From the NCBI GenBank assembly GCA_965221155.1, contig OZ244869.1, forward strand, positions 4,519,790 through 4,583,789: DNA of 64,000 nt. Reading direction: 5' to 3'. Positions 18,270 through 60,043 of the stretch are shown here, piece after piece. The stretch comes from an uncultured Candidatus Binatia bacterium (GTDB lineage Bacteria; Desulfobacterota; Binatia; UBA9968; JAJDTQ01). A model generated the notes under the pieces. It searched no databases. It was not told the origin of the DNA and saw only the letters and a list, made by a program, of their open reading frames with translations. Made by a program: the position numbers and the translations under genes. Position 1 is the first letter of the stretch. Every line of letters starts with the position of its first letter.

Positions 18270-18331
18270 AGAGGAGGGGGGTGACGGTGTATTCGGATGG
18301 ATCGTGTCGTTCCCAGGATCTGCCTGGGTCG

Positions 18332-41327: not shown

Positions 41328-42467
41328 ATGGCGAGAGACGGCTTGAGGATACTCGACAGCGACATGCACGTGTTCGAGCCCCACGACCTCTACCTCAACT
41401 ACATGAACCCCAAGTGGGGTGACCGCATTCCCCGCGGCGAGCCGCGGGAAGGACGCGAGGACAAGGGACTCACGCGCCATGGAATGACGCGTTATGTTCT
41501 GGGCGACGGCAGCCCCATCCGGACCCCGGGCAAGGTCGTGAGTTTTCACGAGAAGCGCCAGAAGGACGCGTACACCCGGCCCGCCAGCCAGAACTACAAC
41601 AACGTCTCGCAGATCGAAGCCATGGACGAGGAAGGACTGGACGTGGCCGTCCAGTTCCGGACCTCGCCGCTGCATACCAACGAGGACTTTGAGCCCGAGT
41701 ACGCCAACGACCTTTGCAAGGCCTGGAACGAGTGGATGCGGGACTTCTGCAGCGCCGATCCGTCGCGGCTCAAGGGTTCGGCCTTGATCACGCTGCACGA
41801 CGTGGAGCTTGCCGTCCAGGAAGCTCGGCGCTCGGTAAAGGAACTGGGCGCGGTGGGGCTGTCCCTCTGCCCGGAGCCCATCAACGGGCGCCACATCCAC
41901 GACCGGGAGTTCGATGCGCTGTGGGCCGAGGCCGTGGACCTCGACGTGCCCATCTGCTTCCATCCGCCGGCCCGTCCCAACCAGGTGCAGGTGTCCCGCC
42001 GCTTCGAGGGGCATCCGAATGAACAACTGCTGGTCAATCCCCTGCGCAATCCCGTGGAGCTGATTCTGGCCGTAAGCGCATTCTGCGCCAGCGGGGTGCT
42101 GGAGAAATTTCCCAAGCTGCGGGTAGCCTTCCTCGAGGGTAACTGTAGCTGGCTGCCGTGGTTGCTGTACCGCCTGGACGAGTACTGTGAGCTCCAGGGG
42201 GCCATGGCGGAAATCCCGCTGCGAAAGAAGCCCAGCGAGTACTTCCGCGACCAATGCTTCATCTCCGCGGATGTGGACGAGGGGCTGGTGGTCAGCGTCA
42301 TTGACTACCTGGGCGACGACAACATCGTCTTCTCCACCGACTACCCGCACATCGACTCCCGCTGGCCCGAGGCCGTCTCTACCTTCACGTCGTTGCCCGG
42401 CCTCAAGAAGGAGTCCCTGGAGAAAATTTTCTGGACCAACTGCGCGCGGCTGTACGGAGTGGAGTAG
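41328..42467 (+). CDS. Amidohydrolase_2 family protein
   Basis: LDSDMHVFEP ... STDYPHID ... WTNCARLYGVE. Paralogue of 53834-54949. Confidence 0.8.
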   Translation: MARDGLRILDSDMHVFEPHDLYLNYMNPKWGDRIPRGEPREGREDKGLTRHGMTRYVLGDGSPIRTPGKVVSFHEKRQKDAYTRPASQNYNNVSQIEAMDEEGLDVAVQFRTSPLHTNEDFEPEYANDLCKAWNEWMRDFCSADPSRLKGSALITLHDVELAVQEARRSVKELGAVGLSLCPEPINGRHIHDREFDALWAEAVDLDVPICFHPPARPNQVQVSRRFEGHPNEQLLVNPLRNPVELILAVSAFCASGVLEKFPKLRVAFLEGNCSWLPWLLYRLDEYCELQGAMAEIPLRKKPSEYFRDQCFISADVDEGLVVSVIDYLGDDNIVFSTDYPHIDSRWPEAVSTFTSLPGLKKESLEKIFWTNCARLYGVE

Positions 42468-44397: not shown

Positions 44398-45351
44398 GTG
44401 TCTGTGACCACGCTGATTACCGGTTCAGGACTCGTCGGGACGTCCTTCGCCCAGGTCGCTCGGCGAAGACGCGCCCGGTTGGTCTTCTATGACGTGCAAC
44501 CTCACGGAGAATTCCTCAAGAGAAAACTGCCGGGAGCCGACGTTGCCTTCGTCCAGGGAGACATTCTGGATCTCCCCGCGCTGTTGCACACGACCAGGCA
44601 ATACGGCGTGGACACCGTGGTACACACTGCGGGTCTGGTCGGCCCCAAGGTCGCGGAAGCGCCCTACACCGGCGTCCGGATCAATGTCATGGGAACCATC
44701 AACGTCCTCGAAGCCGTGCGGCTCTCCGGCGTGAGGCGGCTGGTGCACATCAGCTCCCTCAGCGTCTACGACCAGCGCCGCGACTGCCCCGCGCCCTTGT
44801 GGGAGGCCTTTCCCCGTGGCAACGGCCGGCTGTACGACAACACCAAAGTAGCCAAGGAACTCATGGTCGAGGCATACCAGCGTCTTTACGGCTTCGAGGT
44901 CGTCGTCCTCCGCCTGGCAAAGCTCTATGGCCTCGGCCACTTCCAGGGCGGCTCCGCCGGCGGCCGCCTCATCCAGACCCTGGTGCAATGCGGCCTGCGT
45001 GGGGAGGTGGCACGTGTGCCCCGGCCTCTGACCACGGACTTCGAGTACGTCTACGCCAAGGACGTGGGCCGTGCCGTCGACGTAGCCGCCACCATTCCTC
45101 TGCCGAAAGAGACCTGCTTCAACATCGGGAGCGGCGAGGTGTTGACGTTCGACGAGCTTACGCGGGCCATTAGGGAAGTCCTCCCGGAATTGGAAGTGGA
45201 GATCCTGCCCGGGCCACCGCCCGGAGTTCAGGTGAAACAGCCCATTGACTGCTCCAAAGCCAGAGACCTGCTCGGATGGGAGCCGCGGTACACGATGGAG
45301 GAAGCATTCAGGGACTATGTGGCGGATCTGGAAGACGTGGCGGGCCGGTAA
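44398..45351 (+). CDS. NAD-dependent epimerase/dehydratase (extended SDR)
   Basis: Rossmann motif ITGSGLVGTSFA and YDNTK catalytic motif. Paralogue at 57533-58483. Confidence 0.8.
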   Translation: MSVTTLITGSGLVGTSFAQVARRRRARLVFYDVQPHGEFLKRKLPGADVAFVQGDILDLPALLHTTRQYGVDTVVHTAGLVGPKVAEAPYTGVRINVMGTINVLEAVRLSGVRRLVHISSLSVYDQRRDCPAPLWEAFPRGNGRLYDNTKVAKELMVEAYQRLYGFEVVVLRLAKLYGLGHFQGGSAGGRLIQTLVQCGLRGEVARVPRPLTTDFEYVYAKDVGRAVDVAATIPLPKETCFNIGSGEVLTFDELTRAIREVLPELEVEILPGPPPGVQVKQPIDCSKARDLLGWEPRYTMEEAFRDYVADLEDVAGR

Positions 45352-45369
45352 CCAGGGTTCATTTCCCAC

Positions 45370-45449
45370 GTAGGTCGGATTGGCGAAGCGTAATCCGACA
45401 CTGGGACACAGTACGATGTCGGGTGACCCCTTCGGCCAACCCGACCTAC
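45370..45449. repeat. REP-B inverted dimer
   Basis: GTAGGTCGGATTGGCGAAGCGTAATCCGAC ... GTCGGGTGACCCCTTCGGCCAACCCGACCTAC. Its terminal CTA (45446-45448) is the TAG stop of the ParD-like gene. Confidence 0.85.
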
Positions 45450-45706
45450 AAGGGAACCTTGTTCCTCGCAGTGACGTCCGAAGCCGAGAGGGGATGGAAC
45501 GAGGCATCCGGCGTTGCGAAAGCAAGTTCGAGTTCTGCCTTGAGGCGGTCGAAAGCCTGCCGTTCCCACCGCTCTTTGTCCCGCCGGATTAGATCGCGGA
45601 TGTATTCGTTGACGTTCGCGTAGGCCCCGTTCTCACCGACATTTGCCGAGACGAAGTCGCCGAGCGCCCCGTTGAGGCGAACCGTCACCGTTTTCGTGTG
45701 TGGCAT
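45446..45706 (-). CDS. ParD/CopG-type (CC2985-like) antitoxin, orphan
   Basis: 86 aa. TVRLNGALGDFVSANVGENGAYANVNEYIRDLIRRDKER is typical of ParD-family antitoxins. The position where parE would lie is occupied by REP-B. Confidence 0.7.
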   Translation of the reverse strand: MPHTKTVTVRLNGALGDFVSANVGENGAYANVNEYIRDLIRRDKERWERQAFDRLKAELELAFATPDASFHPLSASDVTARNKVPL

Positions 45707-45834: not shown

Positions 45835-46136
45835 ATGTCGAGCCTGAAGAGAGTCGAGATCAAGGGCTTTCGATCCATCAAGGAGATGACGCTGGATCTC
45901 CGGCCTCTCAATGTCTTGATCGGTGCCAACGGAGCAGGGAAGAGCTGGCCCGTCTACGCTTCTTCGTCGAGGGTCCAACAGAACAGACGTTCGCGGACAC
46001 CCTCTTGAAGCGCCATTTGGCGAACTTCGGGGCTGAGACTATTGGCTTGGAGAATCTCCGGTCCAAGTGTCCTCACTTCAAAAGATGGATTGAGCGACTT
46101 GAGAAACTCGGAGCGGAGTCCCTCCGGGAGCCATGA
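45835..46136 (+). pseudogene. Collapsed remnant of an AAA/ABC-type ATPase gene plus a DUF4276 (Toprim/OLD-like) gene
   Basis: Frame 1 reads MSSLKRVEIKGFRSIKEMTLDLRPLNVLIGANGAGKS (Walker A) and then breaks. Frame 0 from about 45950 reads RLRFFVEGPTEQTFADTLLKRHL (DUF4276 N-terminus) joined to CPHFKRWIERLEKL (DUF4276 C-terminus). Confidence 0.6.
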
Positions 46137-49100
46137 CGCCGATGACGAGAACGACGAAAGGATTGGCGGCGGCGGTGGAGGCCTATCTCGCCGATCTCAG
46201 GCGCGTGCGCGCGTCGGGCGGCGCCACCGGGGAGCGGTCGAGCTACGGCCCGTTGGTGAACCTGCTCAATGCGGTGGGCGCGACGCTCAAGCCCAAGGTG
46301 TTCTGTGTCGGCGAGTTGGCGGACCAGGGTGCGGGCCATCCCGACTTCGGCCTCTACGCGGCCAAGCAGTTGCAGAAGGGGAGACCCAGGGAAGGGCAGG
46401 CTCCCGAGCGCGGCGTTGTCGAGGTCAAGTCCGCCGGCGACGACGCGTGGCTGGTCGCGGACAGCGATCAGGTGAACCGCTACTGGGGCCGCTACCAACT
46501 GGTGCTGGTGACGAACACGCGCGACTTCGTGCTCGTCGGCCCGGACCCGGCCAGAGGCGGTGCGGTGCTCGAGTCTTTCCGTCTGGCCGACAGCGAGGCA
46601 GCGTTCGATCTTGCGCTGGAAAAGCCGCGCGCATTCGCCCGCGAAGTCGGCTCGGGCTTGGCTGAGTATCTCTGTCGCGCGTTGTCCCATCAAGCCGCTC
46701 TGACCGAGCCAAAGGACTTGGCTTGGCTGCTCGCGTCCTATGCCCGCGACGGCCTCTCACGTGTCGAGGCCGCGGGCAGCGCTCCGTCCCTCAACGCCGT
46801 TCGTTCGGCCCTTGAAGAGGCGCTCGGCGTGCGCTTCGAGGGGGAGAAGGGCGCGCGCTTCTTCCTGTCGACACTGGTGCAGACCCTCTTCTACGGCGTC
46901 TTCTCTGCCTGGGTGCTGTGGGCGCGGCAACTCCCGTCACCTGCCGGCAATTTCAACTGGCATGAAGCGGTCTGGCATCTGCGCGCGCCGGTGCTGCGGG
47001 CGCTGTTCCAGCAGCTTTCCGATCCCGGCCGGCTGCAACCCCTCGGCTTGGTCGAGGTGTTGGACTGGACCGCGGCCGCCCTCGACCGGGTGGACCGGCC
47101 TGCGTTCTTCGCCCGCTTCAACGAGGGCGAGGCGGTGCCGTACTTCTACGAGCCGTTCCTCGAAGCCTTCGACCCCGAGCTGCGGAAACAGTTGGGCGTC
47201 TGGTACACGCCAGCGGAGGTAGTTCGCTACATGGTCGCTCGCGTTGACAAGGCGTTGAAGGACGACCTGGGTGTTGCCGAGGGCCTCGCCGCGGAAAACG
47301 TCTACGTGCTCGACCCGTGCTGCGGCACCGGTGCGTATCTCGCAGAAGTGCTGCGCCGCATCGCCGGCAATCTCGAAGGACGGGGTCTCGGCGCCCTCGC
47401 GGGCGCGCGGGTGAAGCAGGCGGCCACGGAACGCGTGTTCGGGTTCGAGATCATGCCCGCACCCTTCGTCGTTGCGCATTTACAAGTCGGGCTCACCATG
47501 CAGGACCTCGACGCGCCGCTGGCGGATGACGAAAAGGAGCGCGCCGGTGTCTTTCTAACCAACGCGCTCACCGGCTGGGAGCCAAGGACGAACAAGCCCC
47601 TGCCGTTTCCCGAGCTCGAAGAAGAACGCGACCGCGCCGAGCGCGTGAAGCAGGAAACGCCCATCCTCGTAATCCTCGGCAACCCGCCCTACAACGGCTT
47701 CGCCGGCATGGCGGTGGACGAGGAGCGGGAGCTCTCGGGAGCCTATCGCAAGACGAAGCGCGTGCGCCGGCCCGAGGGCCAGGGCCTGAACGATCTCTAC
47801 GTCCGCTTTTTCCGCATGGCGGAACGGCGCATCGCCGAGAAGACCGGACGGGGTGTGGTCTGCTTCATCTCGAACTACTCCTGGCTTGACGGGCTGTCCT
47901 TCACGGGAATGCGGGAGCGATACCTTGAAGCGTTCGACGCGGTCCGCATCGACTGCCTGAACGGCGACAAGTATAAGACCGGAAAGGTGGCGCCTGACGG
48001 CTCGCCGGACCCGAGCGTCTTCTCGACGGAAGGCGACCCGGTGGGCATCCAGGTCGGTACCGCCATCACGACGCTGGTGCGCAAGGCCGACCACGCCCCG
48101 GCCGGGGAGATCGGCTTTCGCCATTTGTGGGGACAGACTAAGCCTGCAGAACTGATGGAATCGTCGGAAGCGGAGCCGGTGGCACTCTACGACGGCATCG
48201 AGCCGGTACTGCCGCTGGGTCTGCCGTTTGTGCAAACGGCCTTCAGCGAGGACTGGTTCGACTGGCCGGCGCTGCCCGACCTGTTTCCGGCTTCATTTCC
48301 AGGGATCGAGACTGCCCGCGACGGATTTCTCGTCGATACCGATCTCGACCGGCTCAGGACCCGCATCGCCGACTACTTCGACGCAGATTTGAGCCATGAG
48401 GACATCGCGCGACGTTATCCGGGAGCGATGAAGAACATATCGGGGTTCGATGCTCGTTCGGTACGTGAAATACGGCTTAAGCGAGGGGGCCCTGACGAGG
48501 CCGGCTTTGTCCGCCATGCCTACCGGCCGTTCGACAATCGGTGGCTCTACTGGGAAGCAGATGGCGGTTTGCTCAGGCGTCCGGTAGGTGACTACAGGCC
48601 GCATGTATTCGAAGGAAATCGGTGGCTTTCCAATGCCCAACACTTACGGAAAGGCGCGGCGGCACCGCAGGCATGCTTCACTCAACATATCGGCGGTCGG
48701 CATTTGATAGAGCGCGGTGCCAATTGGTTTCCTGCTTGGCTTCGTGGCGATGGCGTTGGAAAGACTGGCAACCGCGCGCGCCGTGCAAATCTTTCGGAGA
48801 CGGCACGACGCTACCTCAGACGTCTCGGTGTGGGCGTGGAGGACTTGTTCCATCACGTCCTCGCCATCCTTCACGATCCGGCTTACCGCGAGGCCAATGC
48901 CGGAGCACTCAGGATGGAATGGCCGCGCATCCCGCTTCCCGGCTGGCCGAGTGGCGGGGCCGAGGGCGCAGCGGAAGTGCTCGCCCGGTCGGCGGCGCGC
49001 GGTCACGAACTCGCCCGGCTACTCGATCCCGACACGCCCGTTCCGAGCGTGACCCAAGGGACCCTGCGCCCGGAGATCGCCAGCATCGCTGTACCTACCA

Positions 49101-49483
49101 CCGTCGATGGACACAACATGACTGGCGACGATTTCGCGCTGACCGCCGGATGGGGACATTACGGAACCGGCGACGCCGTAATGCCCGGCCAGGGCCGCAT
49201 CGTTGAGCGCGAGTACACGTCGGACGAACGCGCCGCGTTGGGGGAGGCGATATCCACGCTGGGCGCAAAGACCTTGGACGTGTATTTGAACGACCGTGCC
49301 TATTGGCGCAATGTCCCCGCCGTCGTCTGGAGCTACAAGCTCGGCGGTTATCAGGTGCTCAAGAAATGGCTGTCGTATCGTGAACGCGATGTCCTCGGGC
49401 GGGCGCTGTTACTGGGGGAAGTCCAGCACTTCACGGACACCGCGCGGCGGGTTGCCATGATAGCGGCTATGCCAAGAACCTAA
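46133..49483 (+). CDS. Single-polypeptide type IIG/IIL-like restriction-modification enzyme (N6-adenine MTase with type ISP-like C-terminal domain)
   Basis: MTase motif I VLDPCCGTGAYL and motif IV GNPPYNGFAG. The post-MTase region (ISNYSWLDGLSFTGMRERYL; long C-terminal domain) resembles type ISP/MmeI-class enzymes. The N-terminus has a PD...EVK pattern (P70-D71, E97-V98-K99). No helicase motifs. Confidence 0.75.
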   Translation: MTPMTRTTKGLAAAVEAYLADLRRVRASGGATGERSSYGPLVNLLNAVGATLKPKVFCVGELADQGAGHPDFGLYAAKQLQKGRPREGQAPERGVVEVKSAGDDAWLVADSDQVNRYWGRYQLVLVTNTRDFVLVGPDPARGGAVLESFRLADSEAAFDLALEKPRAFAREVGSGLAEYLCRALSHQAALTEPKDLAWLLASYARDGLSRVEAAGSAPSLNAVRSALEEALGVRFEGEKGARFFLSTLVQTLFYGVFSAWVLWARQLPSPAGNFNWHEAVWHLRAPVLRALFQQLSDPGRLQPLGLVEVLDWTAAALDRVDRPAFFARFNEGEAVPYFYEPFLEAFDPELRKQLGVWYTPAEVVRYMVARVDKALKDDLGVAEGLAAENVYVLDPCCGTGAYLAEVLRRIAGNLEGRGLGALAGARVKQAATERVFGFEIMPAPFVVAHLQVGLTMQDLDAPLADDEKERAGVFLTNALTGWEPRTNKPLPFPELEEERDRAERVKQETPILVILGNPPYNGFAGMAVDEERELSGAYRKTKRVRRPEGQGLNDLYVRFFRMAERRIAEKTGRGVVCFISNYSWLDGLSFTGMRERYLEAFDAVRIDCLNGDKYKTGKVAPDGSPDPSVFSTEGDPVGIQVGTAITTLVRKADHAPAGEIGFRHLWGQTKPAELMESSEAEPVALYDGIEPVLPLGLPFVQTAFSEDWFDWPALPDLFPASFPGIETARDGFLVDTDLDRLRTRIADYFDADLSHEDIARRYPGAMKNISGFDARSVREIRLKRGGPDEAGFVRHAYRPFDNRWLYWEADGGLLRRPVGDYRPHVFEGNRWLSNAQHLRKGAAAPQACFTQHIGGRHLIERGANWFPAWLRGDGVGKTGNRARRANLSETARRYLRRLGVGVEDLFHHVLAILHDPAYREANAGALRMEWPRIPLPGWPSGGAEGAAEVLARSAARGHELARLLDPDTPVPSVTQGTLRPEIASIAVPTTVDGHNMTGDDFALTAGWGHYGTGDAVMPGQGRIVEREYTSDERAALGEAISTLGAKTLDVYLNDRAYWRNVPAVVWSYKLGGYQVLKKWLSYRERDVLGRALLLGEVQHFTDTARRVAMIAAMPRT

Positions 49484-49580
49484 GAGTTTCAGCTTGCATT
49501 ACCTCGGAGATTGAGACCCTGCGTCAACAGTTGTGGGATATTCGCGCTAGTTGGGGTTGGTTCTCAGGAAACACCCAATA

Positions 49581-52500
49581 ATGAACGCTGACGACTTTTT
49601 CAATGCGGGTACTACCGCGGACATTCTCCCGAAGGGCGACGCTGCGCGTCAAGCAGTCGATTCTCTGCGAGGCTATGCGTATCAGGCATTGGCGGCGGCC
49701 CTTGCATGGCTCGATATCAACGAAAAGGATCGGCTTTTTCTGGAAGTCGCTGAAGACTATGCGATTATAGCGAAGCAGGCACTTCAAGCTGTTCAAGTCA
49801 AAGACACAGAAGGATCCGGATCGGTCACCTTGAATAGCCCAAGCGTCCACAAGGCGATCGCTGCGTTTGTCGATCTTGCCGAGCGAAATCCCGACATTCA
49901 GGTTTCCCTCCGTTTCTTCACGACATCGAAGATGGGAATCGAGCAAGCTATTGCCGATCGCCCGGCGGGGATGGCTGGATTGGAGTATTGGCGAAAAGTC
50001 GCCGGTGGAGCGGACCCGTCACCCCTCCGCACAATATTGGAGAGCGACAGATTCCCGGAATCTGTAAGAACCTTCTCCAAGGTTCGCGAGGACGCGGCGC
50101 TCCGTAGCGACCTCATTCTGAGGATACATTGGGACTGCGGTAAGCGGGACTTCTCGACGCTTCGCCAAGAACTTGAGGAGCGGCTGGTCGTCGTAGGCCG
50201 TGACCGATTCCATCTTCCAGCTCCAGAGGCGCGGCGGCTTGCCGATCCCTTGGTCTATCGGGTGCTTAAGAAAAGTATCCTAAATGCCCCTCAGGATCGT
50301 GTTCTTACACGCGCTGACCTGTACGAGGCGATCGATGCGGCGACCCTAACTTCAGTGCCGAGCGCTACTGTAGAGGGTCTCGCCCGACTTGCCGCGGGCT
50401 TGACGGGATCGTTTGGCGGAGGTCTGGATCCAGGCAATCCTCTCTCCGTTACGGAAACAGACTGGCTCATTGACGGTACCACGCTTCCCGTCCCGCAGGG
50501 GATGCTCGTCCGGGACGCCGTCGAGTCCACGGTGACTGACGCTCTCAGGACTTTCGGAGCAAGCATGCTCGTAGGCAGCAGCGGTCTTGGCAAGACCACC
50601 GTGTCACGGGCCGTCGCCGTCGCGCAGGCCGGTGCATTCTTCGTGTTGGACTTTCGGAATGCTGACGCGGACGAAACACGTCGCCGGCTGGACATGGTTC
50701 TTGGCCGAATTGGAGGTCTACCCTCTTCGGTACTGATCCTGGACGACCTGAACCATTTTGACGACACGCGTGTTACGTTGTCGTTGGCGCGTGTCATTGA
50801 AGCTTCACGTCGGCGCGACCGCGAGGTGCTCGTAACGTGCTACCGGAAACCCTCCTTGAAGGCGCTGGCTGAGGTCGGCTTCGATCAAGGTTGCGTCGTG
50901 GTTTGCCCATATTTCTCGAAGGATGAAGTCCGTGCGCTTGTCCTTAACAACAACGGGGATCCGGATGAATGGTCGCCTCTCGCATACCTGGCAGGAGCTG
51001 GCGGTCATCCCCAGCTTACACATGCTTTCGTAACAGGGATCGCGGCGCGTGGATGGCCCGTCAAGGAGATTGAAGACATCCTCAGTTGCGGTCTGTCGTC
51101 CGGTGACATTGATGCGGCCCGCGATGCAGCACGGCGCCATTTGATGTCCGCGCTTCCCGAACAAACGCGTAACCTTCTCTATCGACTCAGTCTTATAATC
51201 GGCCGCTTCAATCGGTCACTAGCGTTAGCGATTGGCGGGATTCCTCCGCCCGTATCCCAAACTGGTGAATGCATGGACCGCCTAGTCGGGCCATGGATCG
51301 AAGCTGCCGGCAGGGATCAATTCCGAGTCTCACCACTGGCGAGAAGTTTTGGGCCTGAGATGCTGCCCTCTGATGAGCAAAAGCGCATCCATGAGACCAT
51401 CGCAGTGCAGATGCTTGGAACGGGCAAGATCGATGCGAGCGATGTCGACACCATCATATTGCATGCAATCAAAGGTAAATCGCCGCAAAGCCTAGCCGTG
51501 CTTGGGCTTAGTGTGCTGTCGGCCGATGCTCGCGTAGTCGAGTCGCTCGCAGAACACCTCTCGCTCTTCCGCATTCTCCCAACCAATGGATCTATCTACG
51601 CCGAGGACTCTTTAGCGTCCGCGATACTTCGGCTCATGCAGTTCAAACTGGCCGCTGTGGCAGGTGAAGGAAGCAAGATTTCTGACATTGCAGTAGCACT
51701 TTTCAGTGAGATTGACGCCTTGCCGGAAGGTGAAATGAAGCGTGCTATTGAAGTGATGGCGATAGTCACTGTGCTCGGCACGATGGGGGTCGCAAATTAT
51801 CTCAACAATTGGGTTGGCCTTTTAGTTCGTCTGAAAACCATGGTTGAGACCGACAAGGACTTGCAAGTTGTTGCTGCGAGTCTCCAAGGTTCGGACGATG
51901 CGGGTGGCTCGAACCTCTTTGCTATGCTCCTTGCTATCGGAAGCGCCAATGTCGCATCTGTAGAGCGGCTTGAGCAACTCGTAGACGAACTCGATGAGCT
52001 GGACGCGAACGAGCGAGTACTTTGGCTAAAACCGCTAGAAAAAGATTCTTCCGACTACGCCGTGTTCATCAATGGCCCTTGGGCTACGCAGAGTCGCAGT
52101 GACACTTTCGACCCAGCAGACTCCGCAGTGCGCTACAAACGAATGGCGGAGAAGACGCGGTGTTGGGGCATTCGCGCCCTTTCGCTTCAGTGTTCTGTGG
52201 CTCAGGCGGCCATGTTGGATGAGTATCAGAACAACAAAGAGGGTGCACTAGCGGTCCTCAAGGAAGCGGTATCCGTCCAGGGAGCGGATGTCATCCTCGA
52301 TCGCGCCATAGCCAAAGTTCACTGGCGTCATGGCGAACATAGGACAGCCCTCAACATCCTGCGTGGCATCGCCGATCAGGTTGGTAGGGACAGTCCTGTT
52401 GAGCGTGCTTTCGCGCTACGTGAGGCGGCGATCAGCGCGGCGAAATGCGACGACTGGTCGCAAGCGGAGAAATGGTTTCTTGACGCACAAAGCGCCGCCA

Positions 52501-53675
52501 AATCAGTTCAACTCAATAGCATGGAGGTAATGGCTATTGGCCTGGGAGCCGATTCGGCTGTGGCTGCTCTTGAGGCTGAGGATGTGGACTCGGCGCTGAG
52601 GCGACTTGCGGAAGCGGTAGAGGCGCTGGCGGATGTCGACCCCAAGGCTACGCTGAGCGCGGCATACTGCCATCGTGTCATTCGCCATACTGTCCTATGG
52701 TCGCAATCCCGCATCGTGGGAAGCGACGTCAAAATCGGCGGACGGCCAATCGGAATGGAGGCAGGGACCTGCAGCAATCCGGACCCGTTGCCAGCAGTCA
52801 AGGAGCTTCCACTCGAACACATTGATATTACTTGGTACATGCTGGCCGTGGCGGAGACCGCAGCCGGCGTCGACGTGGGAATCACGACGGGACTCGAAGG
52901 TCGCCTGGCGGAAGGTCCAATTCCGGCAATGGAGTTCGAATTGCATACCCAAGCGATACAGCAGGATATCGGTAGCCTCGATTCCGTCGGATTTACAGAT
53001 CACTTTACGGCGTATGTCGGGTCCGCCGACTACATGTTAAAGGAGGTTGGCCGACTCCGGACAACTTTCGATCCGGTGGTACCGGAAAGAAGGCAGAAGC
53101 CCGTTCCTGACGAAAAGGCGCCATTTGGTCCTCGGGTGGAACAGGTGGCAAAAGAAACCATTCTAGCCTATGGGATCATCGCCGCGTTGGCAGACCAACA
53201 TGATGCGATGACGCAACTTGAAGCCGCCATGCATAGTCGATTGACAAAGCCGTTTCCCGGGAAACCCGTATTCGACCATTGGAACGGAGAGTCGAGTTTG
53301 CTCGCAGAATTGGACCACATTGTTGTAGACATCATCAAGGCGCTTCTCCGAAACGAGCATCTCAAACCTGATGAGTTCTGGATGGCGGGGTTCCGCCTTT
53401 TTGAGTGGATCAACCTATCCAATTTTAAGCTTCTTCTCATGAAGCGCCTCGCCGCGTGGCAGAGATCCGGATGGGAGCGAATATCCACTGAAGAATCATT
53501 CCGTCTTTCCAGACCGCGTCAGAGTTTGCCTCCCATTGAGGAAGTTCTAAGGATACCCGCAAATGATCGGAGGTTCGTCGCGAAGCTTCTCCTAGCAAGT
53601 TCCGAGGCAGTCGGCGCCCCTCTTGGGTCGGCATCTCGGGATGTCCTTAAGGCTGTGGCAGAAGGAGCAGAATGA
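49581..53675 (+). CDS. Cap4/DUF4297-like nuclease - P-loop (STAND-like) NTPase - helical-repeat protein, 1364 aa
   Basis: GYAYQ (aa 31-35), LFLEVAED (52-59), QVK (72-74). Walker A LVGSSGLGKT (330-339) and Walker B VLILDD (384-389). About 800 aa of Ala/Leu-rich helical sequence follow. A hand count of 49801-49900 gives 54 G+C per 100 nt. The start is ATG 49581 or GTG 49551. Confidence 0.7.
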   Translation: MNADDFFNAGTTADILPKGDAARQAVDSLRGYAYQALAAALAWLDINEKDRLFLEVAEDYAIIAKQALQAVQVKDTEGSGSVTLNSPSVHKAIAAFVDLAERNPDIQVSLRFFTTSKMGIEQAIADRPAGMAGLEYWRKVAGGADPSPLRTILESDRFPESVRTFSKVREDAALRSDLILRIHWDCGKRDFSTLRQELEERLVVVGRDRFHLPAPEARRLADPLVYRVLKKSILNAPQDRVLTRADLYEAIDAATLTSVPSATVEGLARLAAGLTGSFGGGLDPGNPLSVTETDWLIDGTTLPVPQGMLVRDAVESTVTDALRTFGASMLVGSSGLGKTTVSRAVAVAQAGAFFVLDFRNADADETRRRLDMVLGRIGGLPSSVLILDDLNHFDDTRVTLSLARVIEASRRRDREVLVTCYRKPSLKALAEVGFDQGCVVVCPYFSKDEVRALVLNNNGDPDEWSPLAYLAGAGGHPQLTHAFVTGIAARGWPVKEIEDILSCGLSSGDIDAARDAARRHLMSALPEQTRNLLYRLSLIIGRFNRSLALAIGGIPPPVSQTGECMDRLVGPWIEAAGRDQFRVSPLARSFGPEMLPSDEQKRIHETIAVQMLGTGKIDASDVDTIILHAIKGKSPQSLAVLGLSVLSADARVVESLAEHLSLFRILPTNGSIYAEDSLASAILRLMQFKLAAVAGEGSKISDIAVALFSEIDALPEGEMKRAIEVMAIVTVLGTMGVANYLNNWVGLLVRLKTMVETDKDLQVVAASLQGSDDAGGSNLFAMLLAIGSANVASVERLEQLVDELDELDANERVLWLKPLEKDSSDYAVFINGPWATQSRSDTFDPADSAVRYKRMAEKTRCWGIRALSLQCSVAQAAMLDEYQNNKEGALAVLKEAVSVQGADVILDRAIAKVHWRHGEHRTALNILRGIADQVGRDSPVERAFALREAAISAAKCDDWSQAEKWFLDAQSAAKSVQLNSMEVMAIGLGADSAVAALEAEDVDSALRRLAEAVEALADVDPKATLSAAYCHRVIRHTVLWSQSRIVGSDVKIGGRPIGMEAGTCSNPDPLPAVKELPLEHIDITWYMLAVAETAAGVDVGITTGLEGRLAEGPIPAMEFELHTQAIQQDIGSLDSVGFTDHFTAYVGSADYMLKEVGRLRTTFDPVVPERRQKPVPDEKAPFGPRVEQVAKETILAYGIIAALADQHDAMTQLEAAMHSRLTKPFPGKPVFDHWNGESSLLAELDHIVVDIIKALLRNEHLKPDEFWMAGFRLFEWINLSNFKLLLMKRLAAWQRSGWERISTEESFRLSRPRQSLPPIEEVLRIPANDRRFVAKLLLASSEAVGAPLGSASRDVLKAVAEGAE

Positions 53676-53833
53676 CTTCAAGTGCCGCATAGTTTCAGAT
53701 ACTCTACCATCTCGATCTGGGTCTAACGGAAACTGGAGTAGCAGAAACTCCCTCTGCGGGGAGCTCTCGCCGGAGTTGATACAGATTTCATAGCCGCCAA
53801 TAGGATGCCAGGACGGCAGTAAGGAGCAGGGAT

Positions 53834-54949
53834 ATGGCCAGGAACGGTTACCAGGTATTCGACAGCGACATGCACGTCTACGACGCGCAGAATCTCTATG
53901 AGAAGTACATGAACCCCAAGTGGGGGGAGCGGATTCCCGTCGGCAGCGCCCGCAGCAAGCACGGGCGCATCGTGTTCAGCTTGGGCAACGGCACCGTGAT
54001 GCGGCCGCGGGAGAAGCTGCTGGAGCACGGCGAGGACAAGGTGGCGGACCGTTACGGCTACGCGCTGGAGCACGGCTACGACGCACCGTCCCAGGTAGTG
54101 GCCATGGACAACGAAGGGTTGGACGTGGCGGTGATGTTCCGCACCTCTCCGCTGCACTGCGACGACAGCTTCGAGGCGGAATACGCCAACGACCTGTGCC
54201 GGGCGTGGAACGATTGGATCGCGGCCTTCTGCGGCGAGCGGCCGGAGCGCATGAAGGCGTCGGGGCTGTTGACGCTGCACGATGTGGATATGGCCGTGGA
54301 CGAGGCGCGGAGAGCGGTGACGGAACTGGGCGTGGTAGGCCTTTCGGTTTGCCCGGAGCCTGTCAACGGCCGGCGCATCCACGACCGTTACTACGACCCC
54401 CTGTGGGCCGAGATCGACCGGCTGAAGGTGCCGCTGTGCTTTCATCCGCCGGCAAATCCCAAGCAGCAGCAGGTGGCGCGGGAGTTCTACGGCCATCCCA
54501 ACTCCAGCGTGATTGCCATGGCGCTGCGCAACCCCATCGAGCTTCAACTGGCGGTGTCCGCCTTCTGTGGCGGGGGCGTGCTGGAGAAGTTCCCGACCCT
54601 GAAGGTGGCGTTTCTCGAAGGGAACTGCGCGTGGTTGCCTTGGCTGTTGTACCGGCTGGACGAAAGGGCCGAGCTCCACGGCGCCCTCACCGACGTCCCG
54701 CTGTCCCGGAAGCCCAGCGAGTACTTCCTTGACCAGTGCTACATCTCCGTGGACGTGGACGAGTATCTGGTCACCGACGTCGTCGGGCGTCTGGGAGACG
54801 ACAACATCGTCATCTCCACGGACTACCCGCACATCGACGCGCACTACCCGCACGCGGTGGAGGAGTTCATGGAGACCCCAGGCCTGAGCAACAGTTCCCT
54901 CAAGAAAATCCTCTGGGACAACTGCGCGAGGCTCTACGGCGTGAGTTGA
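53834..54949 (+). CDS. Amidohydrolase_2 family protein
   Basis: FDSDMHVYD ... STDYPHIDAHYPH ... WDNCARLYGVS. Confidence 0.8.
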   Translation: MARNGYQVFDSDMHVYDAQNLYEKYMNPKWGERIPVGSARSKHGRIVFSLGNGTVMRPREKLLEHGEDKVADRYGYALEHGYDAPSQVVAMDNEGLDVAVMFRTSPLHCDDSFEAEYANDLCRAWNDWIAAFCGERPERMKASGLLTLHDVDMAVDEARRAVTELGVVGLSVCPEPVNGRRIHDRYYDPLWAEIDRLKVPLCFHPPANPKQQQVAREFYGHPNSSVIAMALRNPIELQLAVSAFCGGGVLEKFPTLKVAFLEGNCAWLPWLLYRLDERAELHGALTDVPLSRKPSEYFLDQCYISVDVDEYLVTDVVGRLGDDNIVISTDYPHIDAHYPHAVEEFMETPGLSNSSLKKILWDNCARLYGVS

Positions 54950-55020: not shown

Positions 55021-56289
55021 TTATTGAGGCAGGTGCGACTCCCGCGCACCCTTGTACACAATGGGCAGGAGTGACGGGTCTGTGACGCTGGAGTCCGCGT
55101 GCAGATGTATCACGCTGCGGCCCGTACCGCAGTCCCCGAAGTCATCGCAGGTAAGCGTGCCGATGATGCCCTGGAAACCTGCGGTGCCGTCCAAGGCATC
55201 ACGGAGTGCCGCGCGGTCGATGTACAGCGTCTCTCCATCTACGACCGCAATCTGCTTGATAGCCGAGAGCAACAATGTCGTGGCGTCATAGCCGTGCGCC
55301 CAGTACGGCGACGTCGGAGGCCCTCCATGGGTGGCCTTGAACGCGGTTAGTACATCCGCAGCGCTTCTGCCTGTCGCCTGGTTCGTGTTCCTGCTGTCTC
55401 CAAGATCAGGTCCCGTGAAATAGACGCCCTCCGATTCCGGCAACGCAAGAACCTTAGCCGCTAATGTGGCGGCGCCACTGATTCTCGTCACGCCTTTCAG
55501 GGCGCCGAGGCGGGCTGCCTGTCGAATCAAGGACGTTGCCTCCGCCGGGAAGAGCGGGATGAACACGCCATCGGGGGCGGCTTCCTCGAACCGGGCGAGA
55601 ACAGCGGCCATGTCAGTCTGGCCTTTCGCCACTTGGGCGATGACCGGAACAGTGCCGCCATGCTTCCTGAAAGCAACGGCAAAAGCGTTCGAAATGGCGC
55701 TGGTATACGGGTCACCGTCATGAATCGTCACCATCCTGCGCAATCCCAGTTCATCGTAGCTGAAATGCGCGACAATGCTCGCCTCGATGAGGTCGTTGTC
55801 CGCAACACGGTAGTAACCCTTGTGGTAGTCGGGACCGGCATTTCCGGACAGGTCGGACGTGAGGACAGGCGACGTGTTGGACGGCGATATCATCGATAGG
55901 CCCGCCTTGCTGATAACGGGCGACGCCTCCACCGCGGCACCGGAGCACAAGGTGCCGATGACGCCGACGACCTGCGCGTCGGCAACGACGGCTTCAGCCG
56001 CCGCGCGCCCACCCTCGCCCGAGCACAGCTCGTCGAAGGTTTCGGTGGAGACTTGGCGCCCGTGTATGAGGCCGAAGTCCTTGGCCGCTATCTCGATGGC
56101 GGTCTGAATGAGAGGGGACACGGACGGCACGACCGTATCGGAAAGGAGCACGCGGATTTCGATCGGCTGACCGAGCTTGATCTCAACCGCACCGAGTGGC
56201 CCCGATTTGAAGCCACTGCTGAAAGCGGCGGTCGCGAACACCATGAAAGCGAGTACCAAGCCCTGTCCGATGAAAAACGACCTGCTCAT
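55021..56289 (-). CDS. Periplasmic binding protein, branched-chain amino acid (LivJ/Peripla_BP_6) type, orphan
   Basis: Signal peptide MSRSFFIGQGLVLAFMVFATAAFS, then VIGTLCSGAA...SPSNTSP. No cognate ABC permease or ATPase genes are nearby. Confidence 0.8.
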   Translation of the reverse strand: MSRSFFIGQGLVLAFMVFATAAFSSGFKSGPLGAVEIKLGQPIEIRVLLSDTVVPSVSPLIQTAIEIAAKDFGLIHGRQVSTETFDELCSGEGGRAAAEAVVADAQVVGVIGTLCSGAAVEASPVISKAGLSMISPSNTSPVLTSDLSGNAGPDYHKGYYRVADNDLIEASIVAHFSYDELGLRRMVTIHDGDPYTSAISNAFAVAFRKHGGTVPVIAQVAKGQTDMAAVLARFEEAAPDGVFIPLFPAEATSLIRQAARLGALKGVTRISGAATLAAKVLALPESEGVYFTGPDLGDSRNTNQATGRSAADVLTAFKATHGGPPTSPYWAHGYDATTLLLSAIKQIAVVDGETLYIDRAALRDALDGTAGFQGIIGTLTCDDFGDCGTGRSVIHLHADSSVTDPSLLPIVYKGARESHLPQ

Positions 56290-56318
56290 TTCAACTCCTC
56301 GGTCGGGATGGATCCGCA

Positions 56319-56535
56319 AACCGGCTGGCCGAGAGGGCCGAGTACACGGCGCCCTCACCGACGTCTCGCTGTCCGCCTGGGAGACGACAACATCGTCATC
56401 TCCATGGACTACCAGCACATCGACGCGCACTACCCCCACGCCGTGGAGGAGTTCGTGGAGACTCCCGGGCTGAGCAAGAGTTCCCTCAAGAAGATTCTCT
56501 GGGACAACCGTGCGAGGTTGTACGGCGTGGACTAG
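56319..56535 (+). pseudogene. 3'-end remnant of an amidohydrolase_2 gene (degenerate copy of 54651-54949)
   Basis: Nucleotide-level match to the 3' end of 53834-54949, with an internal deletion of about 84 nt. Encodes RLGDDNIVISMDYQHIDAHYPHAVEEFVETPGLSKSSLKKILWDNRARLYGVD. Confidence 0.8.
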
Positions 56536-56689: not shown

Positions 56690-57289
56690 TCATTCCTCTG
56701 GTTCGTCGTGAGCTTCACGCACGAACTCGACTAATTCTACCTGGTCTGCCGGTATCAGAATCGCGGACACGCCCGTCGCGGGGATACGCTCATTTTCGAT
56801 CAACCACTCGGCTTCCGCAATTCGAAAGTGTCCTTCGTCGGGACGACTTGGCCACTCCTCGGGCCAGCCATAGAGATGACGTTCTCCCTTGAGGTGTAAC
56901 GTAACATAGCAATCGCAGTGGCGCGAGAAGGCGGAATACCACTCAGACGGGTACGAAGTCTCCCTGGTTACGCCGATCCGGCGAAGAAGACGGTGAACCG
57001 TGTCCCTGTTGAGGAAATAGGAAGTCAGCAGCCCAAGGACGACAGCGATCGCCACAGAGAGAAGGATCTCCCAGTTCTTGCCCTTAGGTTCACTGTCCAG
57101 AACGCTTCCGAGCAACAGGATAGCATCCCTGATGGCATGCCCGATTACGGTGAAGATGAGCGCTTGAACGACGCGGTCAAAGGGGCTGGGCTTGGGATAG
57201 GAAGTGAGGGAGTAGAAGATGCTCGCTGCTACGAATCCAGGCAAGAGGAAAGTCAGGACGCCTATAATGTCGCCGGATGCCCAACTCAC
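56690..57289 (-). CDS. Hypothetical membrane protein (3-4 N-terminal TM helices plus a soluble C-terminal domain; possibly DUF6338-like)
   Basis: 199-aa ORF with hydrophobic segments at aa 8-30, 45-65 and 75-95, in a lower-GC stretch. The family assignment is tentative. Confidence 0.45.
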   Translation of the reverse strand: MSWASGDIIGVLTFLLPGFVAASIFYSLTSYPKPSPFDRVVQALIFTVIGHAIRDAILLLGSVLDSEPKGKNWEILLSVAIAVVLGLLTSYFLNRDTVHRLLRRIGVTRETSYPSEWYSAFSRHCDCYVTLHLKGERHLYGWPEEWPSRPDEGHFRIAEAEWLIENERIPATGVSAILIPADQVELVEFVREAHDEPEE

Positions 57290-57532
57290 GATTGCTTAAC
57301 CTCCTCCCGCTTTCGCAATGCAACGCTTAGTGGATCACAGCACCGGCACCGAATTTCGTTGATCGGTGTCCGGGTTCCTTGAACCTCATACAAGTGAGCA
57401 AACACCATGCCAGTGGCTGCATCCCTTCCTGTGAGGTGGGCAAACCGACTGGTGGTGGCGGTTTGCCTCCTCATCTTCGGCGGACACCGTAACCTCTCCA
57501 AACCCTCCGCCGTCCATGTTAGATTGCTCAGC

Positions 57533-58483
57533 ATGGCGACTCTGATTACAGGCAGTGGGCTTATCGGCGCCTCCTTCGGGGCCTATGCCGCGGCGCGGGG
57601 CGAACGTCTGGTCTTTCTCGACTTCCAGCCGCGGGATGAGTTTCTGAAGAGCAAGCTCGGGTCCGCGGACTACGTATCCCTTCAGGGGGACGTGCTGGAC
57701 CTGCCGGCACTCACCGGAATCATCAAGGCCCATGGCATCGATACGGTGCTGCACACGGCGGCCATCATCGCCGGCCGTGTGGCCCAGGAGGGCTATTGGG
57801 CCTTCAACGTCAATATCCAGGGCACCATCAATGTAGCCGAGGCAGCGCGGTTGGCTGGGGTCCGGCGTGTGGTGCACATCAGCACCCTCAGCGTTTACAA
57901 CCGCGCGTTCGAGGGAGCGGGCTCCGTGCCCGAGACGCTCCAGCGCGGCGACAGCACGGCCTACGGCAGCTCCAAGGCCGTCCAGGAGCTGGTGCTGGAG
58001 GCGTACCAGGGGCTCTACGGCGTCGAGCTGATGGTGGTGCGGCTGGCCCACGTGTTCGGGCTGGGGCATTTCCTGGGCGGGGCCGAGAGCGGCGCCATCA
58101 CGCATACGCTCCTCACCTGCGGCCGGGACGGCGGAGTCGCCAAGATCGCCCGGCGCCAAGCGAGGCCGCTGGAGCGGATCTATGCCAAGGACGTGGGCCG
58201 CGCGGTGGATCTGGCGGCGACCGTGCCGGTGCCCCCGGTCAACGTGTTCAATATCGGTACGGGCTCGGTGACCACCTTCGACGAACTGGTGGCGGAGGCA
58301 AGAGCGATCTATCCGGGGCTGGAGGTGGAGGTGGTGCCGGACGGGACGCCGCATGTGGGGGCGAAGCAGCCCTTGGATATCACCCGGGCGAAGGAATATC
58401 TGGGCTGGGAGCCCCAGTTCACCTTGGGTTCGGCGCTGCAGGACTATGTCAGCGATCTGGACGCGTTGGCGCATGGGTCGTGA
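57533..58483 (+). CDS. NAD-dependent epimerase/dehydratase (extended SDR)
   Basis: ITGSGLIGASFG Rossmann motif and YGSSK catalytic motif. Paralogue of 44398-45351. Confidence 0.8.
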   Translation: MATLITGSGLIGASFGAYAAARGERLVFLDFQPRDEFLKSKLGSADYVSLQGDVLDLPALTGIIKAHGIDTVLHTAAIIAGRVAQEGYWAFNVNIQGTINVAEAARLAGVRRVVHISTLSVYNRAFEGAGSVPETLQRGDSTAYGSSKAVQELVLEAYQGLYGVELMVVRLAHVFGLGHFLGGAESGAITHTLLTCGRDGGVAKIARRQARPLERIYAKDVGRAVDLAATVPVPPVNVFNIGTGSVTTFDELVAEARAIYPGLEVEVVPDGTPHVGAKQPLDITRAKEYLGWEPQFTLGSALQDYVSDLDALAHGS

Positions 58484-58535
58484 AGCCACGGCTCACGGGC
58501 CGGGCTCGAGCGCCCCGCGAAGAGGGGAGTGAGTG

Positions 58536-59984
58536 ATGAGTTCAGGACAGGCATTGGAATCCGAAGCCGTTCGCGCCCGGCTTGACCATCCGATCATCGA
58601 TACCGACGGCCACACGGTTGAGCTGACTCCGCTGTACCTCGACTATCTCAAGGAACTGGGCGGCGCCGACATGCCGCGGCGCTATGCGGAGGCCACGAGC
58701 GCCCGCTCCAACAGCCGCTGGTCCTCCATGACGGAAGCCGAGCGCCGCAGCGTCCGGGCGCATTGCCCGCCCTGGTGGGCGCGTCCGGCGAGCAACACCC
58801 TGGACCGGGCCACGGCGTCGTTGCCGCGGCTGCTGCACGAGCGAATGGACCGGCTGGGTATCGACTTCGCGGTGCTGTATCCCACCGAGGGGTTGGCCGG
58901 CCCGCCCCGGTTCGAGGATGAGGAGCTTCGCCGGGTTTCCTGCCGGGCATTGAACAAGTTCCACGCGGAATTCTACGGCGAATGCTCGGACCGGATGACC
59001 CCGGCCGCGGTGATTCCCACCCACACCCCGGAAGAGGCCATCGAGGACACCGAATACGCCATCCGCGAGCTCGGCCTCAAGACCATCGTCATCTCCCACG
59101 TGGACCGGCCCATCCCGCGGGTAGCGGAAGCACGGCCGGACCTGGCGCCCTTCGCCCGCTACATCGACAACCTGGCTCTGGACAGCGAGTATGACTACGA
59201 TCCGTTCTGGCAGCGGTGCATGGAGCTGGGCGTGGCGCCGACGTCCCACGCCAGCGGCCAGGGCTGGGGTAGCCGGCGCTCGGTGTCCAACTACATGTAC
59301 AACCACATCGGCCACTTCGCCGCGGCTGGTGAGGCTATGTGTAAGGCGATGTTTTTCGGCGGGGTTACGTATCGGTTTCCAATGCTCAACTTCGCTTTCT
59401 TGGAGTGCGGGGTCGGGTGGGCGTGCGGCTTGTACAGCGACATCCTGGAGCACTGGGAGAAACGCAACCGGGACGCCATTGCCACGCTGGACCCGGAGAG
59501 CCTCGACGTCGATCTCATGATGAAGCTCGTGGCGGAGTACGGCGGCATCGAAGGCGAGGAGAAGCTCGACCGGATCCGCGCGTCGCTGGGCCGGAAGGAG
59601 CGTCGTCCGGAGATCCTCGATGACTGGTCCCGTTGCGGCATTGAGCAGGCCGAGGACATCCGCGACCGCTTCGTGCCGCGCTTCTACTTCGGTTGCGAGG
59701 CCGACGACCGCATGATCGCCTGGGCCTTCAACGACAAGCTGAACCCCTTCGGCGCCCGGCTCGGAGCCATGATGAGCTCGGACATCGGCCACTGGGACGT
59801 CACCGACATGACCGAGGTGGTGGCCGAGGCCCACGAGCTGGTGGACCGGGGGCATATCACCGAAGAGGATTTTCGCGACTTCAGCTTCACCAACGCGGTG
59901 CGCTTCTATTCCGGCATGAATCCGGATTTCTTTGCCGGTACGGCCTGTGAGGAAGCGGCCGCCCGGGTGACGGCGGCGAGTTAG
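58536..59984 (+). CDS. Amidohydrolase_2 family protein (long form)
   Basis: IDTDGHTVE N-terminal metal motif and C-terminal SSDIGHWD. About 482 aa. Confidence 0.75.
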   Translation: MSSGQALESEAVRARLDHPIIDTDGHTVELTPLYLDYLKELGGADMPRRYAEATSARSNSRWSSMTEAERRSVRAHCPPWWARPASNTLDRATASLPRLLHERMDRLGIDFAVLYPTEGLAGPPRFEDEELRRVSCRALNKFHAEFYGECSDRMTPAAVIPTHTPEEAIEDTEYAIRELGLKTIVISHVDRPIPRVAEARPDLAPFARYIDNLALDSEYDYDPFWQRCMELGVAPTSHASGQGWGSRRSVSNYMYNHIGHFAAAGEAMCKAMFFGGVTYRFPMLNFAFLECGVGWACGLYSDILEHWEKRNRDAIATLDPESLDVDLMMKLVAEYGGIEGEEKLDRIRASLGRKERRPEILDDWSRCGIEQAEDIRDRFVPRFYFGCEADDRMIAWAFNDKLNPFGARLGAMMSSDIGHWDVTDMTEVVAEAHELVDRGHITEEDFRDFSFTNAVRFYSGMNPDFFAGTACEEAAARVTAAS

Positions 59985-60043
59985 CTCCAGGCCGTTTTAC
60001 ACGCCGAATCGACAGTCGACTTGGAAAGGGGAGAGGAACGCTC

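Follow-up and report, generated by a model that had tools for sequence, protein, structure and literature searches.

Two adjacent anti-phage-type genes in a Candidatus Binatia chromosome: very probably a stacked defence island and not a two-gene system

In a stretch of 64,000 nucleotides from an uncultured Candidatus Binatia bacterium (contig OZ244869.1; this whole stretch is called the window in the following), two very large genes stand one behind the other on the same strand. A sequence-only reading had described them as an MmeI/PglX-like restriction-modification (RM) enzyme followed by a STAND-like nuclease, and had weighed a two-gene module, in which modification separates self from non-self, against two defence systems that are merely stacked. 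The question raised by this locus is whether both genes work as one machine. We consider it very likely that they do not, and that each gene is an anti-phage system in its own right, independent of the other and placed beside it by historical accident within a stacked defence island. The two genes are:

46133..49483, + strand: gene 1, a Type IIG/IIL RM enzyme of 1116 aa, identified by PADLOC, Pfam and PDB matches
49581..53675, + strand: gene 2, an Avs-like antiviral STAND protein of 1364 aa, identified by family search, structure prediction and fold search

Both open reading frames (ORFs) are present on the + strand with the coordinates given earlier, gene 1 beginning with ATG and gene 2 at either 49551 or 49581. 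The codon at 49551, previously taken for a GTG start, is TTG. Counted from the gene 1 stop codon (49483), the spacer measures 97 bp to the ATG at 49581 and 67 bp to the start at 49551. Because the N-termini of 21 aligned homologues line up at the ATG, with an invariant M1, the start of gene 2 was set to 49581. An AGGAA is found 13-17 nt upstream of this ATG, and the gene 2 product is likely to be 1364 aa long.

The arrangement invites the idea of a co-evolved two-gene system, BREX-like or split Type ISP-like, in which the methyltransferase-nuclease would mark self DNA and the STAND nuclease would read or obey this mark. In its favour, the genes share the strand, only the short spacer lies between them with no terminator in it, and the adjacency is retained in four related loci. 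Such a system would be expected to leave a trace in other genomes, and the neighbourhoods of both gene families were accordingly compared.

Co-occurrence of the two genes

For gene 2, one genome per species was scanned, resulting in 80 loci with 26-68% identity from Binatia, Latescibacterota, Terriglobia, many Pseudomonadota and others. With tblastn, a gene 1 homologue within 10 kb of the gene 2 homologue was found in 0/80 loci. The tblastn control with gene 2 recovered 80/80, and the faint matches of gene 1 concerned only methyltransferase motif I of type I HsdM genes. In the opposite direction, gene 1 homologues (51-78% identity) were examined at 80 metagenome loci, 60 of which had at least 1.5 kb and 37 at least 4.2 kb of downstream sequence. 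Gene 2 was absent from all 80. Five further close homologues of gene 2 (69-73%) were likewise not accompanied by gene 1.

Constant partners of another kind did not emerge either. When ORFs of at least 70 aa within 6 kb were clustered, no ORF family accompanied gene 2 in more than five of the 80 loci. In the case of gene 1, no neighbour was conserved in more than ten of the 80 loci, the commonest (10/80) being a small upstream ORF of helix-turn-helix type. Altogether this indicates that there is no conserved module of an RM and a STAND gene, and the pair was seen only in four loci of one lineage, namely the window and its relatives L163, L081 and L164. The sequence-only reading had itself named homologues that are never adjacent elsewhere as an argument against its module, and outside the lineage of the window they are indeed not adjacent.

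Base composition also separates the two genes. The sharp drop in G+C that had been noticed at about 49.5 kb stood up: 1-kb windows read 0.63-0.67 within gene 1 and 0.55-0.58 beyond that point, in gene 2. At third codon positions, the G+C content (GC3) is 0.777 for gene 1 and 0.585 for gene 2, a gap of 0.19, with the flanking housekeeping genes at 0.79-0.89 (about 0.85). Furthermore, besides gene 1 and gene 2 the 64-kb window holds no ORF of at least 700 aa with coding-like GC3, so that partners of the size of BrxC, PglZ or a helicase are absent. The earlier remark that BrxA/B/C, PglZ and helicase genes are missing therefore holds, and the wider neighbourhood is metabolic, consisting of FAD-oxidase, CCG, amidohydrolase and binding-protein genes.

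The absence of co-occurrence in each direction across phyla largely refutes the co-evolved two-gene system. To this must be added the GC3 gap, a further relative (L165) in which this chromosomal locus holds gene 1 but lacks gene 2, the finding that gene 2 stands alone in all other contexts examined, a spacer that appears to belong to gene 2, and the fact that both proteins already have the complete architectures of known self-sufficient systems. Taken together, we regard this explanation as extremely improbable, and the module proposed by the sequence-only reading did not survive the comparison.

Order of acquisition and the gene 2 leader

Important insight was gained from the closest relatives of the locus. 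Three of them carry the pair, at nucleotide identities to the window of 97% (L163), 91% (L081) and 90% (L164), with the same 97-bp spacer in all three. In L164, gene 2 was called as three ORFs, which may reflect decay or indels in a 9x (low-coverage) assembly. L165, a 4.2-Mb genome about 83% identical to the window, has the same flanking synteny and lacks gene 2. Its gene order is an ATPase of AAA_15/21/23 type (368 aa), a DUF4276 protein (233 aa), gene 1, a peptidase M24 (414 aa) and an amidohydrolase, where ATPase, DUF4276 and M24 genes are intact. Homology between L165 and the window ends near the gene 1 stop codon and resumes at window position 53761, exactly where a fragment of the peptidase gene was detected:

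53761..53790, + strand: remnant of the peptidase M24 gene, its last 10 codons, the right-hand limit of the replacement by gene 2 (tblastn with aa 405-414 of the L165 M24 protein, 80%)

Because L165 keeps an intact M24 gene and the window only its last 10 codons, the M24 gene was replaced by the gene 2 cassette after gene 1 had settled. The reciprocal neighbourhood analysis and this one syntenic relative together show that gene 1 and gene 2 are separate acquisitions.

The spacer itself was then relevant. The absence of an obvious terminator hairpin, as described before, was upheld: a simple consensus scan of the + strand of the 97-bp spacer, with a consensus that may not be that of the host, gave neither a terminator-like nor a promoter-like site, and the folding predicted for the spacer is no more stable than that of shuffled sequence (z = 0.32). 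Comparison with other gene 2 loci nevertheless revealed shared elements:

49496..49580, + strand: 5' leader of about 85 nt moving with gene 2, recognised by motifs shared with other gene 2 loci
49511, + strand: leader motif TTGAGACC (TTGAGRCC), offset -70
49531, + strand: leader motif TTGTGGGATAT (TTGTGRNAYAY), offset -50
49563, + strand: leader motif CTCAGGAA (YTCAGRAA), resembling a ribosome-binding site, offset -17

All three motifs were found at the same offsets in L001 (Binatia) and L024 (Latescibacterota), and the first two in L002 (Latescibacterota). In these three loci the motifs lie upstream of a gene 2 homologue and gene 1 is absent. Over 88 nt the identity of the leaders is 0.70-0.72, compared to a maximum of 0.64-0.67 in 200 shuffles. 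Since the leader is common to gene 2 loci of other phyla that have no gene 1, nearly the entire 97-bp spacer can be assigned to the gene 2 cassette, as far as sequence comparison can tell. It may serve as a promoter, or as a regulatory element transferred together with gene 2. On the 3' side of gene 2, no conservation outside the lineage was detected, and nothing there could be recognised as a cassette end, repeat or att site. The most plausible course of events is thus that a gene 2 cassette with its own leader of about 85 nt replaced the M24 gene downstream of an already resident gene 1, in line with the independent acquisition that had been offered earlier as the other option.

Separate arrival would still allow both genes to be read today as one transcript, by read-through from a gene 1 promoter, giving co-regulation without biochemical coupling. 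The shared strand and the lack of a terminator-like structure in the spacer would be compatible with this, as would the arrangement kept in L163, L081 and L164. On the other hand, the gene 2 leader contains a TTGAGA box resembling a -35 element, and in other phyla this leader also occurs at loci lacking a same-strand gene upstream. This suggests that gene 2 has its own promoter, with the reservation that the consensus may not be that of the host. We therefore judge a common transcript to be unlikely.

Domain architecture of the two proteins

The domains of gene 1 were delimited as follows:

46181..46582, + strand: PD-(D/E)xK nuclease domain, about aa 17-150 (D71, E97, K99), from the HPDFG and VVEVK motifs
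47138..48127, + strand: gamma-class N6-adenine methyltransferase, about aa 336-665, from Pfam and PDB matches, with motif I DPCCGTG at 394 and motif IV NPPY at 517
48278..49402, + strand: target-recognition domain (TRD), Type_ISP_C, aa 716-1090, Pfam 8e-40

PADLOC models of the REase_MTase_IIG type match gene 1 with 8.9e-87 and 6.1e-72 (near full length), the alignment starting at residue 16. Pfam returned Type_ISP_C (8e-40), N6_Mtase and Eco57I, with MmeI_Mtase staying under its cut-off (21.3 vs 27 bits); the PADLOC match to PglX was weak (2.2e-5). Relatives of solved structure were found by sequence in DrdV (7lo5, 1.7e-32), LlaGI and LlaBIII, all covering the methyltransferase core alone. 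The former label MmeI/PglX-like can thus be kept in part: gene 1 is a Type IIG restriction endonuclease-methyltransferase, closer to DrdV and to the Type ISP methyltransferase-TRD than to MmeI or PglX.

Next, conservation was followed through the family. The search yielded at least 8000 candidates, with many clusters at about 80% identity. Both D71 of HPDFG and E97-x-K99 of VVEVK are invariant in 121/121 family members, and the same applies to DPCCGTG and NPPY among these 121. In the more distant homologues listed from metagenomes, with identities as low as 37%, PD...E-x-K is retained in all but one, the exception being L153 with PN. The methyltransferase core is the most conserved part (89-96% identity). 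Variation is greatest in the TRD (56% identity at aa 851-900), as would be expected of a domain that sets specificity. No helicase domain was found in gene 1 with Pfam or PADLOC. As the nuclease and methyltransferase motifs are invariant, the TRD variable and a helicase domain absent, gene 1 is best described as an intact single-chain Type IIG/IIL enzyme, neither Type ISP nor PglX, and is, to judge from these motifs an ordinary member of the huge Type IIG family.

Two further observations concern gene 1. More than 120 clusters (at 90% identity) of its family lie 79-87% identical to gene 1, on contigs of very diverse sizes, one of them named Gemmatimonadota. Such tightness is unusual for an RM enzyme and suggests that a single Type IIG lineage has recently spread widely by horizontal transfer. 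Since the nucleotide homology breaks 28 bp before the stop codon, recombination within gene 1 was also considered. Such a joint is not required, given that the C-terminal tail is naturally variable (39% identity).

Compared to known systems, gene 1 resembles Type IIL/IIG enzymes (DrdV 7lo5, MmeI family) in combining PD-ExK nuclease, gamma N6-adenine methyltransferase (NPPY) and TRD in one chain, without a separate methyltransferase or specificity subunit, whereas its match to DrdV is restricted to the methyltransferase core, aa 336-652. With the Type ISP enzymes LlaGI and LlaBIII it has the methyltransferase core and the Type_ISP_C domain in common. Unlike these proteins of 1406-1578 aa, it is 1116 aa long and has no superfamily 2 (SF2) helicase-like ATPase motor, nor is a helicase gene nearby; it therefore cannot act through ATP-driven translocation and collision. 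Like the BREX protein PglX, gene 1 is a large N6-adenine methyltransferase of the Eco57I/MmeI-like class, but it retains a nuclease motif, and genes for BrxA, BrxB, BrxC, PglZ and BrxL are absent. In the mechanism that we propose, the C-terminal TRD would read an asymmetric site, the NPPY methyltransferase would mark adenines of the host at N6 so that host sites are protected, and the N-terminal PD-ExK nuclease would cleave incoming DNA that is unmodified.

In the case of gene 2, three parts could be distinguished:

49644..50219, + strand: Cap4/DUF4297/LmuA-like PD-(D/E)xK nuclease, the putative effector, aa 22-213, from weak hidden Markov model (HMM) matches and invariant residues
50466..51500, + strand: STAND NTPase (nucleotide-binding domain, helical domain, winged helix), from Foldseek, with Walker A GSSGLGKT at 332-339 and Walker B LILDD, D389
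51381..53672, + strand: all-alpha solenoid resembling tetratricopeptide repeats (TPR), the presumed sensor, aa 601-1364 (764 aa), from AlphaFold and Foldseek

At the N-terminus, PADLOC LmuA matches aa 23-213 with 4.7e-10, NCBIfam DUF4297_antiphage scores 8e-4 and Pfam Cap4_nuclease 1.2e-3, the latter under its cut-off. The family profile of gene 2 compared to PDB gave the DUF4297 structure 8ziq with 0.011. A weak AAA match was also seen at the sequence level. The residues E55, E58, D59 and K74 are invariant, and Q72 is conserved to at least 90%. In the NTPase, G335, G337, K338 and D389 of Walker A and B are invariant in the homologues.

AlphaFold models of gene 2 were calculated from an alignment of 44 sequences, with a mean predicted local distance difference test score (pLDDT) of 77.4 for residues 1-640 and 88.9 for residues 601-1364. 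When these models were submitted to Foldseek, the N-terminal half matched best to Avs3 bound to terminase (8dgc, 4e-10), and also to Apaf-1 (3shf), a STAND-TPR protein (6mfv), CED-4, plant NLRs, the NB-ARC domain of NRC1 (TMt 0.61) and MalT (8bob, TMt 0.57). The C-terminal half matched exclusively TPR and solenoid proteins. The fold search on the predicted structure hence lends support to the earlier call of a STAND-like nuclease. By sequence, searches of PDB chains with both halves gave generic AAA+, DUF4297 or TPR noise alone, and for the sensor half no relative of solved structure was found among these chains.

The gene 2 family is large and patchy. At full length there are at least 512 matches, none functionally named (hypothetical at most), and the sensor domain alone comprises 934 representative clusters at E <= 1e-3 and 313 at E <= 1e-30. 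Full-length members of the sensor family measure about 1290-1390 aa, and in all of them the sensor extends from about residue 590 to the C-terminus. The distribution covers Binatia, Latescibacterota, Acidobacteriota and Pseudomonadota together with plasmids. Homologues occur on 18 plasmids, labelled hypothetical protein, AAA family ATPase, TPR protein and once ABC transporter ATP-binding protein.

A layout of nuclease, STAND and TPR was described by Lee et al. 2026 for Avs3, Avs7 and at least 90 families (PMC13581612). According to the models, gene 2 has this Avs architecture, with a Cap4-type nuclease, a STAND NTPase and a TPR sensor. It thus looks like an unnamed member of a well-known kind and may already fall within the catalogue of Lee et al. 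2026. As in the Avs proteins with Cap4-type nuclease (SeAvs3 8dgc, SeAvs7; PMC13581612), the three parts sit on a single polypeptide that stands alone in defence islands. In contrast to Avs3, gene 2 is shorter (1364 aa vs about 2000 aa) and its sensor is a distinct family, and it differs from the Avs proteins in lacking a sequence match to the PADLOC AVAST models or to any solved Avs chain. The nuclease is of the same Cap4/DUF4297/LmuA type as in DUF4297-HerA and Lamassu (LmuA + LmuB). There it is paired with a separate HerA or SMC protein, whereas in gene 2 it is fused to the STAND NTPase, and no HerA or LmuB gene adjoins gene 2 in the window or in the 80 other loci. Nuclease activity of DUF4297 type has been shown for DUF4297-HerA (PMC11291478).

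The fold matches also leave room for another explanation, namely that gene 2 is a housekeeping or regulatory STAND protein of the MalT or AfsR kind that happens to lie near defence genes. MalT is indeed among the matches, and no curated defence model covers the whole of gene 2. Against this, the N-terminal domain is a nuclease of Cap4/DUF4297/LmuA kind with invariant PD-(D/E)xK-type residues rather than an output domain that binds DNA, Avs3 is the closest of the fold matches, the distribution is patchy across phyla and plasmids, and GC3 is low compared to host genes. Additionally, RM operons and defence islands are recurrent surroundings of gene 2. In L005 the homologue lies between hsdS and hsdR of an annotated type I RM operon (5936-18529), and in L027 it has the same position, as deduced from homologous ORFs; in L001 and L169 it is found beside type I RM genes, the neighbour there being hsdM. 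This lodging in type I RM loci resembles that of other defence genes. One homologue adjoins a Shedu gene, another lies between a Bil-like E2/ThiF system, a TumE toxin-antitoxin pair and CBASS, and on a Paraburkholderia symbiosis plasmid one is located directly 3' of HEC-01. PADLOC on 132 neighbours from 22 gene 2 loci returned SIR2, HmaA, RT, AriA-like and MADS models among the matches, to be taken as a plain list for these 22 loci. Overall, a housekeeping role of gene 2 seems very improbable to us.

Based on the mechanism of Cap4-nuclease Avs proteins (PMC13581612), gene 2 can be pictured as follows. If Avs3 and Avs7 are taken as the model, a conserved phage protein would be recognised by the C-terminal TPR-like half. 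This contact would lift autoinhibition and let the ATP-bound STAND domains assemble into oligomers, bringing the Cap4-like nucleases together for an indiscriminate degradation of DNA that leads to abortive infection. Gene 1 and gene 2 would then probably provide a layered defence without biochemical coupling. Domain identities, intact catalytic motifs, missing co-occurrence and the order of arrival follow from the comparisons made here, while the enzymatic activities, the phage trigger, oligomerisation and abortive infection are deduced from the families named.

It is important to add the points that weigh against two independent one-gene systems. The nuclease call for gene 2 is composed of weak HMM scores, motif conservation and the Avs3 fold match, and pLDDT drops below 50 at residues 57-79, that is, around the putative active site. 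No match to gene 2 came from the PADLOC AVAST/Avs models (Avs1-5), nor, beyond the weak DUF4297_antiphage score, from NCBIfam. Concerning the pair, neither a terminator nor a strong hairpin lies between the genes, so that read-through co-transcription from gene 1 is possible, and the pair has been retained across relatives diverged to about 90% nucleotide identity.

The island, its surroundings and their meaning

The history of the locus extends further upstream, where remains of a third system were detected:

45835..45945, + strand: remnant of HEC-01A (AAA_15/21/23 ATPase), codons 1-37, with Walker A GANGAGKS (tblastn of the L165 ATPase, 86%)
45945..46124, + strand: remnant of HEC-01B (DUF4276), aa 1-28 joined to aa 199-230 (tblastn: 45945-46028 and 46029-46124)

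HEC-01 is a PADLOC candidate system of an AAA_15/21 ATPase and a DUF4276 protein, and it is the source of this remnant. In L165 it is intact, ATPase and DUF4276 protein matching HEC-01A and HEC-01B at 2e-141 and 1.3e-74. In L163 it is partly decayed, with an ATPase of 165 aa and DUF4276 in two pieces. Pfam DUF4276 matches the C-terminus of the HEC-01B remnant in the window (1.2e-10). Compared to the intact system, the window retains 37 + 28 + 32 codons, and because nothing else is left HEC-01 cannot function here. The stop codon of the HEC-01B remnant overlaps the ATG of gene 1 (ATGA, as read from the sequence), and HEC-01 was for this reason considered as the true partner of gene 1. The candidate was rejected: HEC-01 accompanies gene 1 in 1/80 loci and also adjoins gene 2 homologues that lack gene 1.

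The island is flanked by an epimerase gene (44398-45351) and an Amidohydro_2 gene (53834-54949). We picture this interval as a chromosomal defence hotspot in which three unrelated systems would have been stacked at different times, HEC-01 being reduced to a deletion remnant, gene 1 being the resident and gene 2 the last to arrive.

Several other features of the surroundings were observed. Paralogues with 65-72% nucleotide identity lie on either side of the island, at 41328-42467, 53834-54949 and 58533-61150 (Amidohydro_2) and at 44398-45351 and 57407-58483 (epimerase); these repeats could favour rearrangement at the hotspot. Palindromic sequences resembling repetitive extragenic palindromes, gtaggtcggattggcgaagcgtaatccgacac / gtcgggtgaccccttcggccaacccgacctac, are found at about 45365-45460 between the epimerase gene and the island. 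An ORF of 86 aa on the - strand (45446-45706), MPHTKTVTVRLNG..., is conserved in L165 and L163 and has no obvious toxin partner. A label as RHH/ParD-type antitoxin, suggested by its appearance, is not claimed for it, as Pfam and PADLOC gave no match.

Further downstream, a low-GC patch (GC about 0.55) contains a gene of AbiV type with a HEPN domain (61232-62185, + strand; Pfam 1.3e-24, PADLOC AbiV 1.6e-27) and a HicB antitoxin gene (62556-62888, + strand). This patch is another defence or toxin-antitoxin insertion, and no counterpart was found in L165 between the amidohydrolase and glyoxalase genes. A DUF6338 gene (56690-57289, - strand) is positioned alike in the window, L164 and L165, with the amidohydrolase gene on one side and the second epimerase gene on the other; in the window a periplasmic-binding-protein gene (55021-56439), absent in L164 and L165, separates it from the amidohydrolase gene. 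On the other side of the island, a low-GC gene (35647-36843, - strand, GC3 0.63) with HATPase_c-like and DUF4325 STAS-like domains is inserted beside FAD-oxidase genes and has no PADLOC match.

A more far-reaching interpretation would be that gene 2 represents an experimentally untried Avs family, its sensor perhaps directed at a phage component for which sensing has not been described so far, that the leader is a dedicated regulatory element, and that the adjacency to RM genes (Type IIG here; type I in L001, L005, L027 and L169) results from a preferred insertion context or from selection for layering of RM and Avs, and not from chance. A novel phage component comes into consideration because the sensor of about 760 aa has no sequence relative among solved structures. 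We hold this set of proposals to be rather doubtful as a whole.

In conclusion, the locus averts a false lead, as two large co-directional defence-type genes without a terminator between them resemble an operon and yet were separately acquired. It is at the same time a worked example of turnover at a hotspot, with a decayed HEC-01, a resident Type IIG RM enzyme, a recent gene 2 cassette and an overwritten housekeeping gene. The gene 2 family, with about 900 representative clusters and functionally nameless in the sources searched, is a reasonable candidate for trigger-discovery screens in the style of Avs7-21. The most useful leads for understanding this family are the trigger of its sensor and the conserved leader carried along with gene 2.

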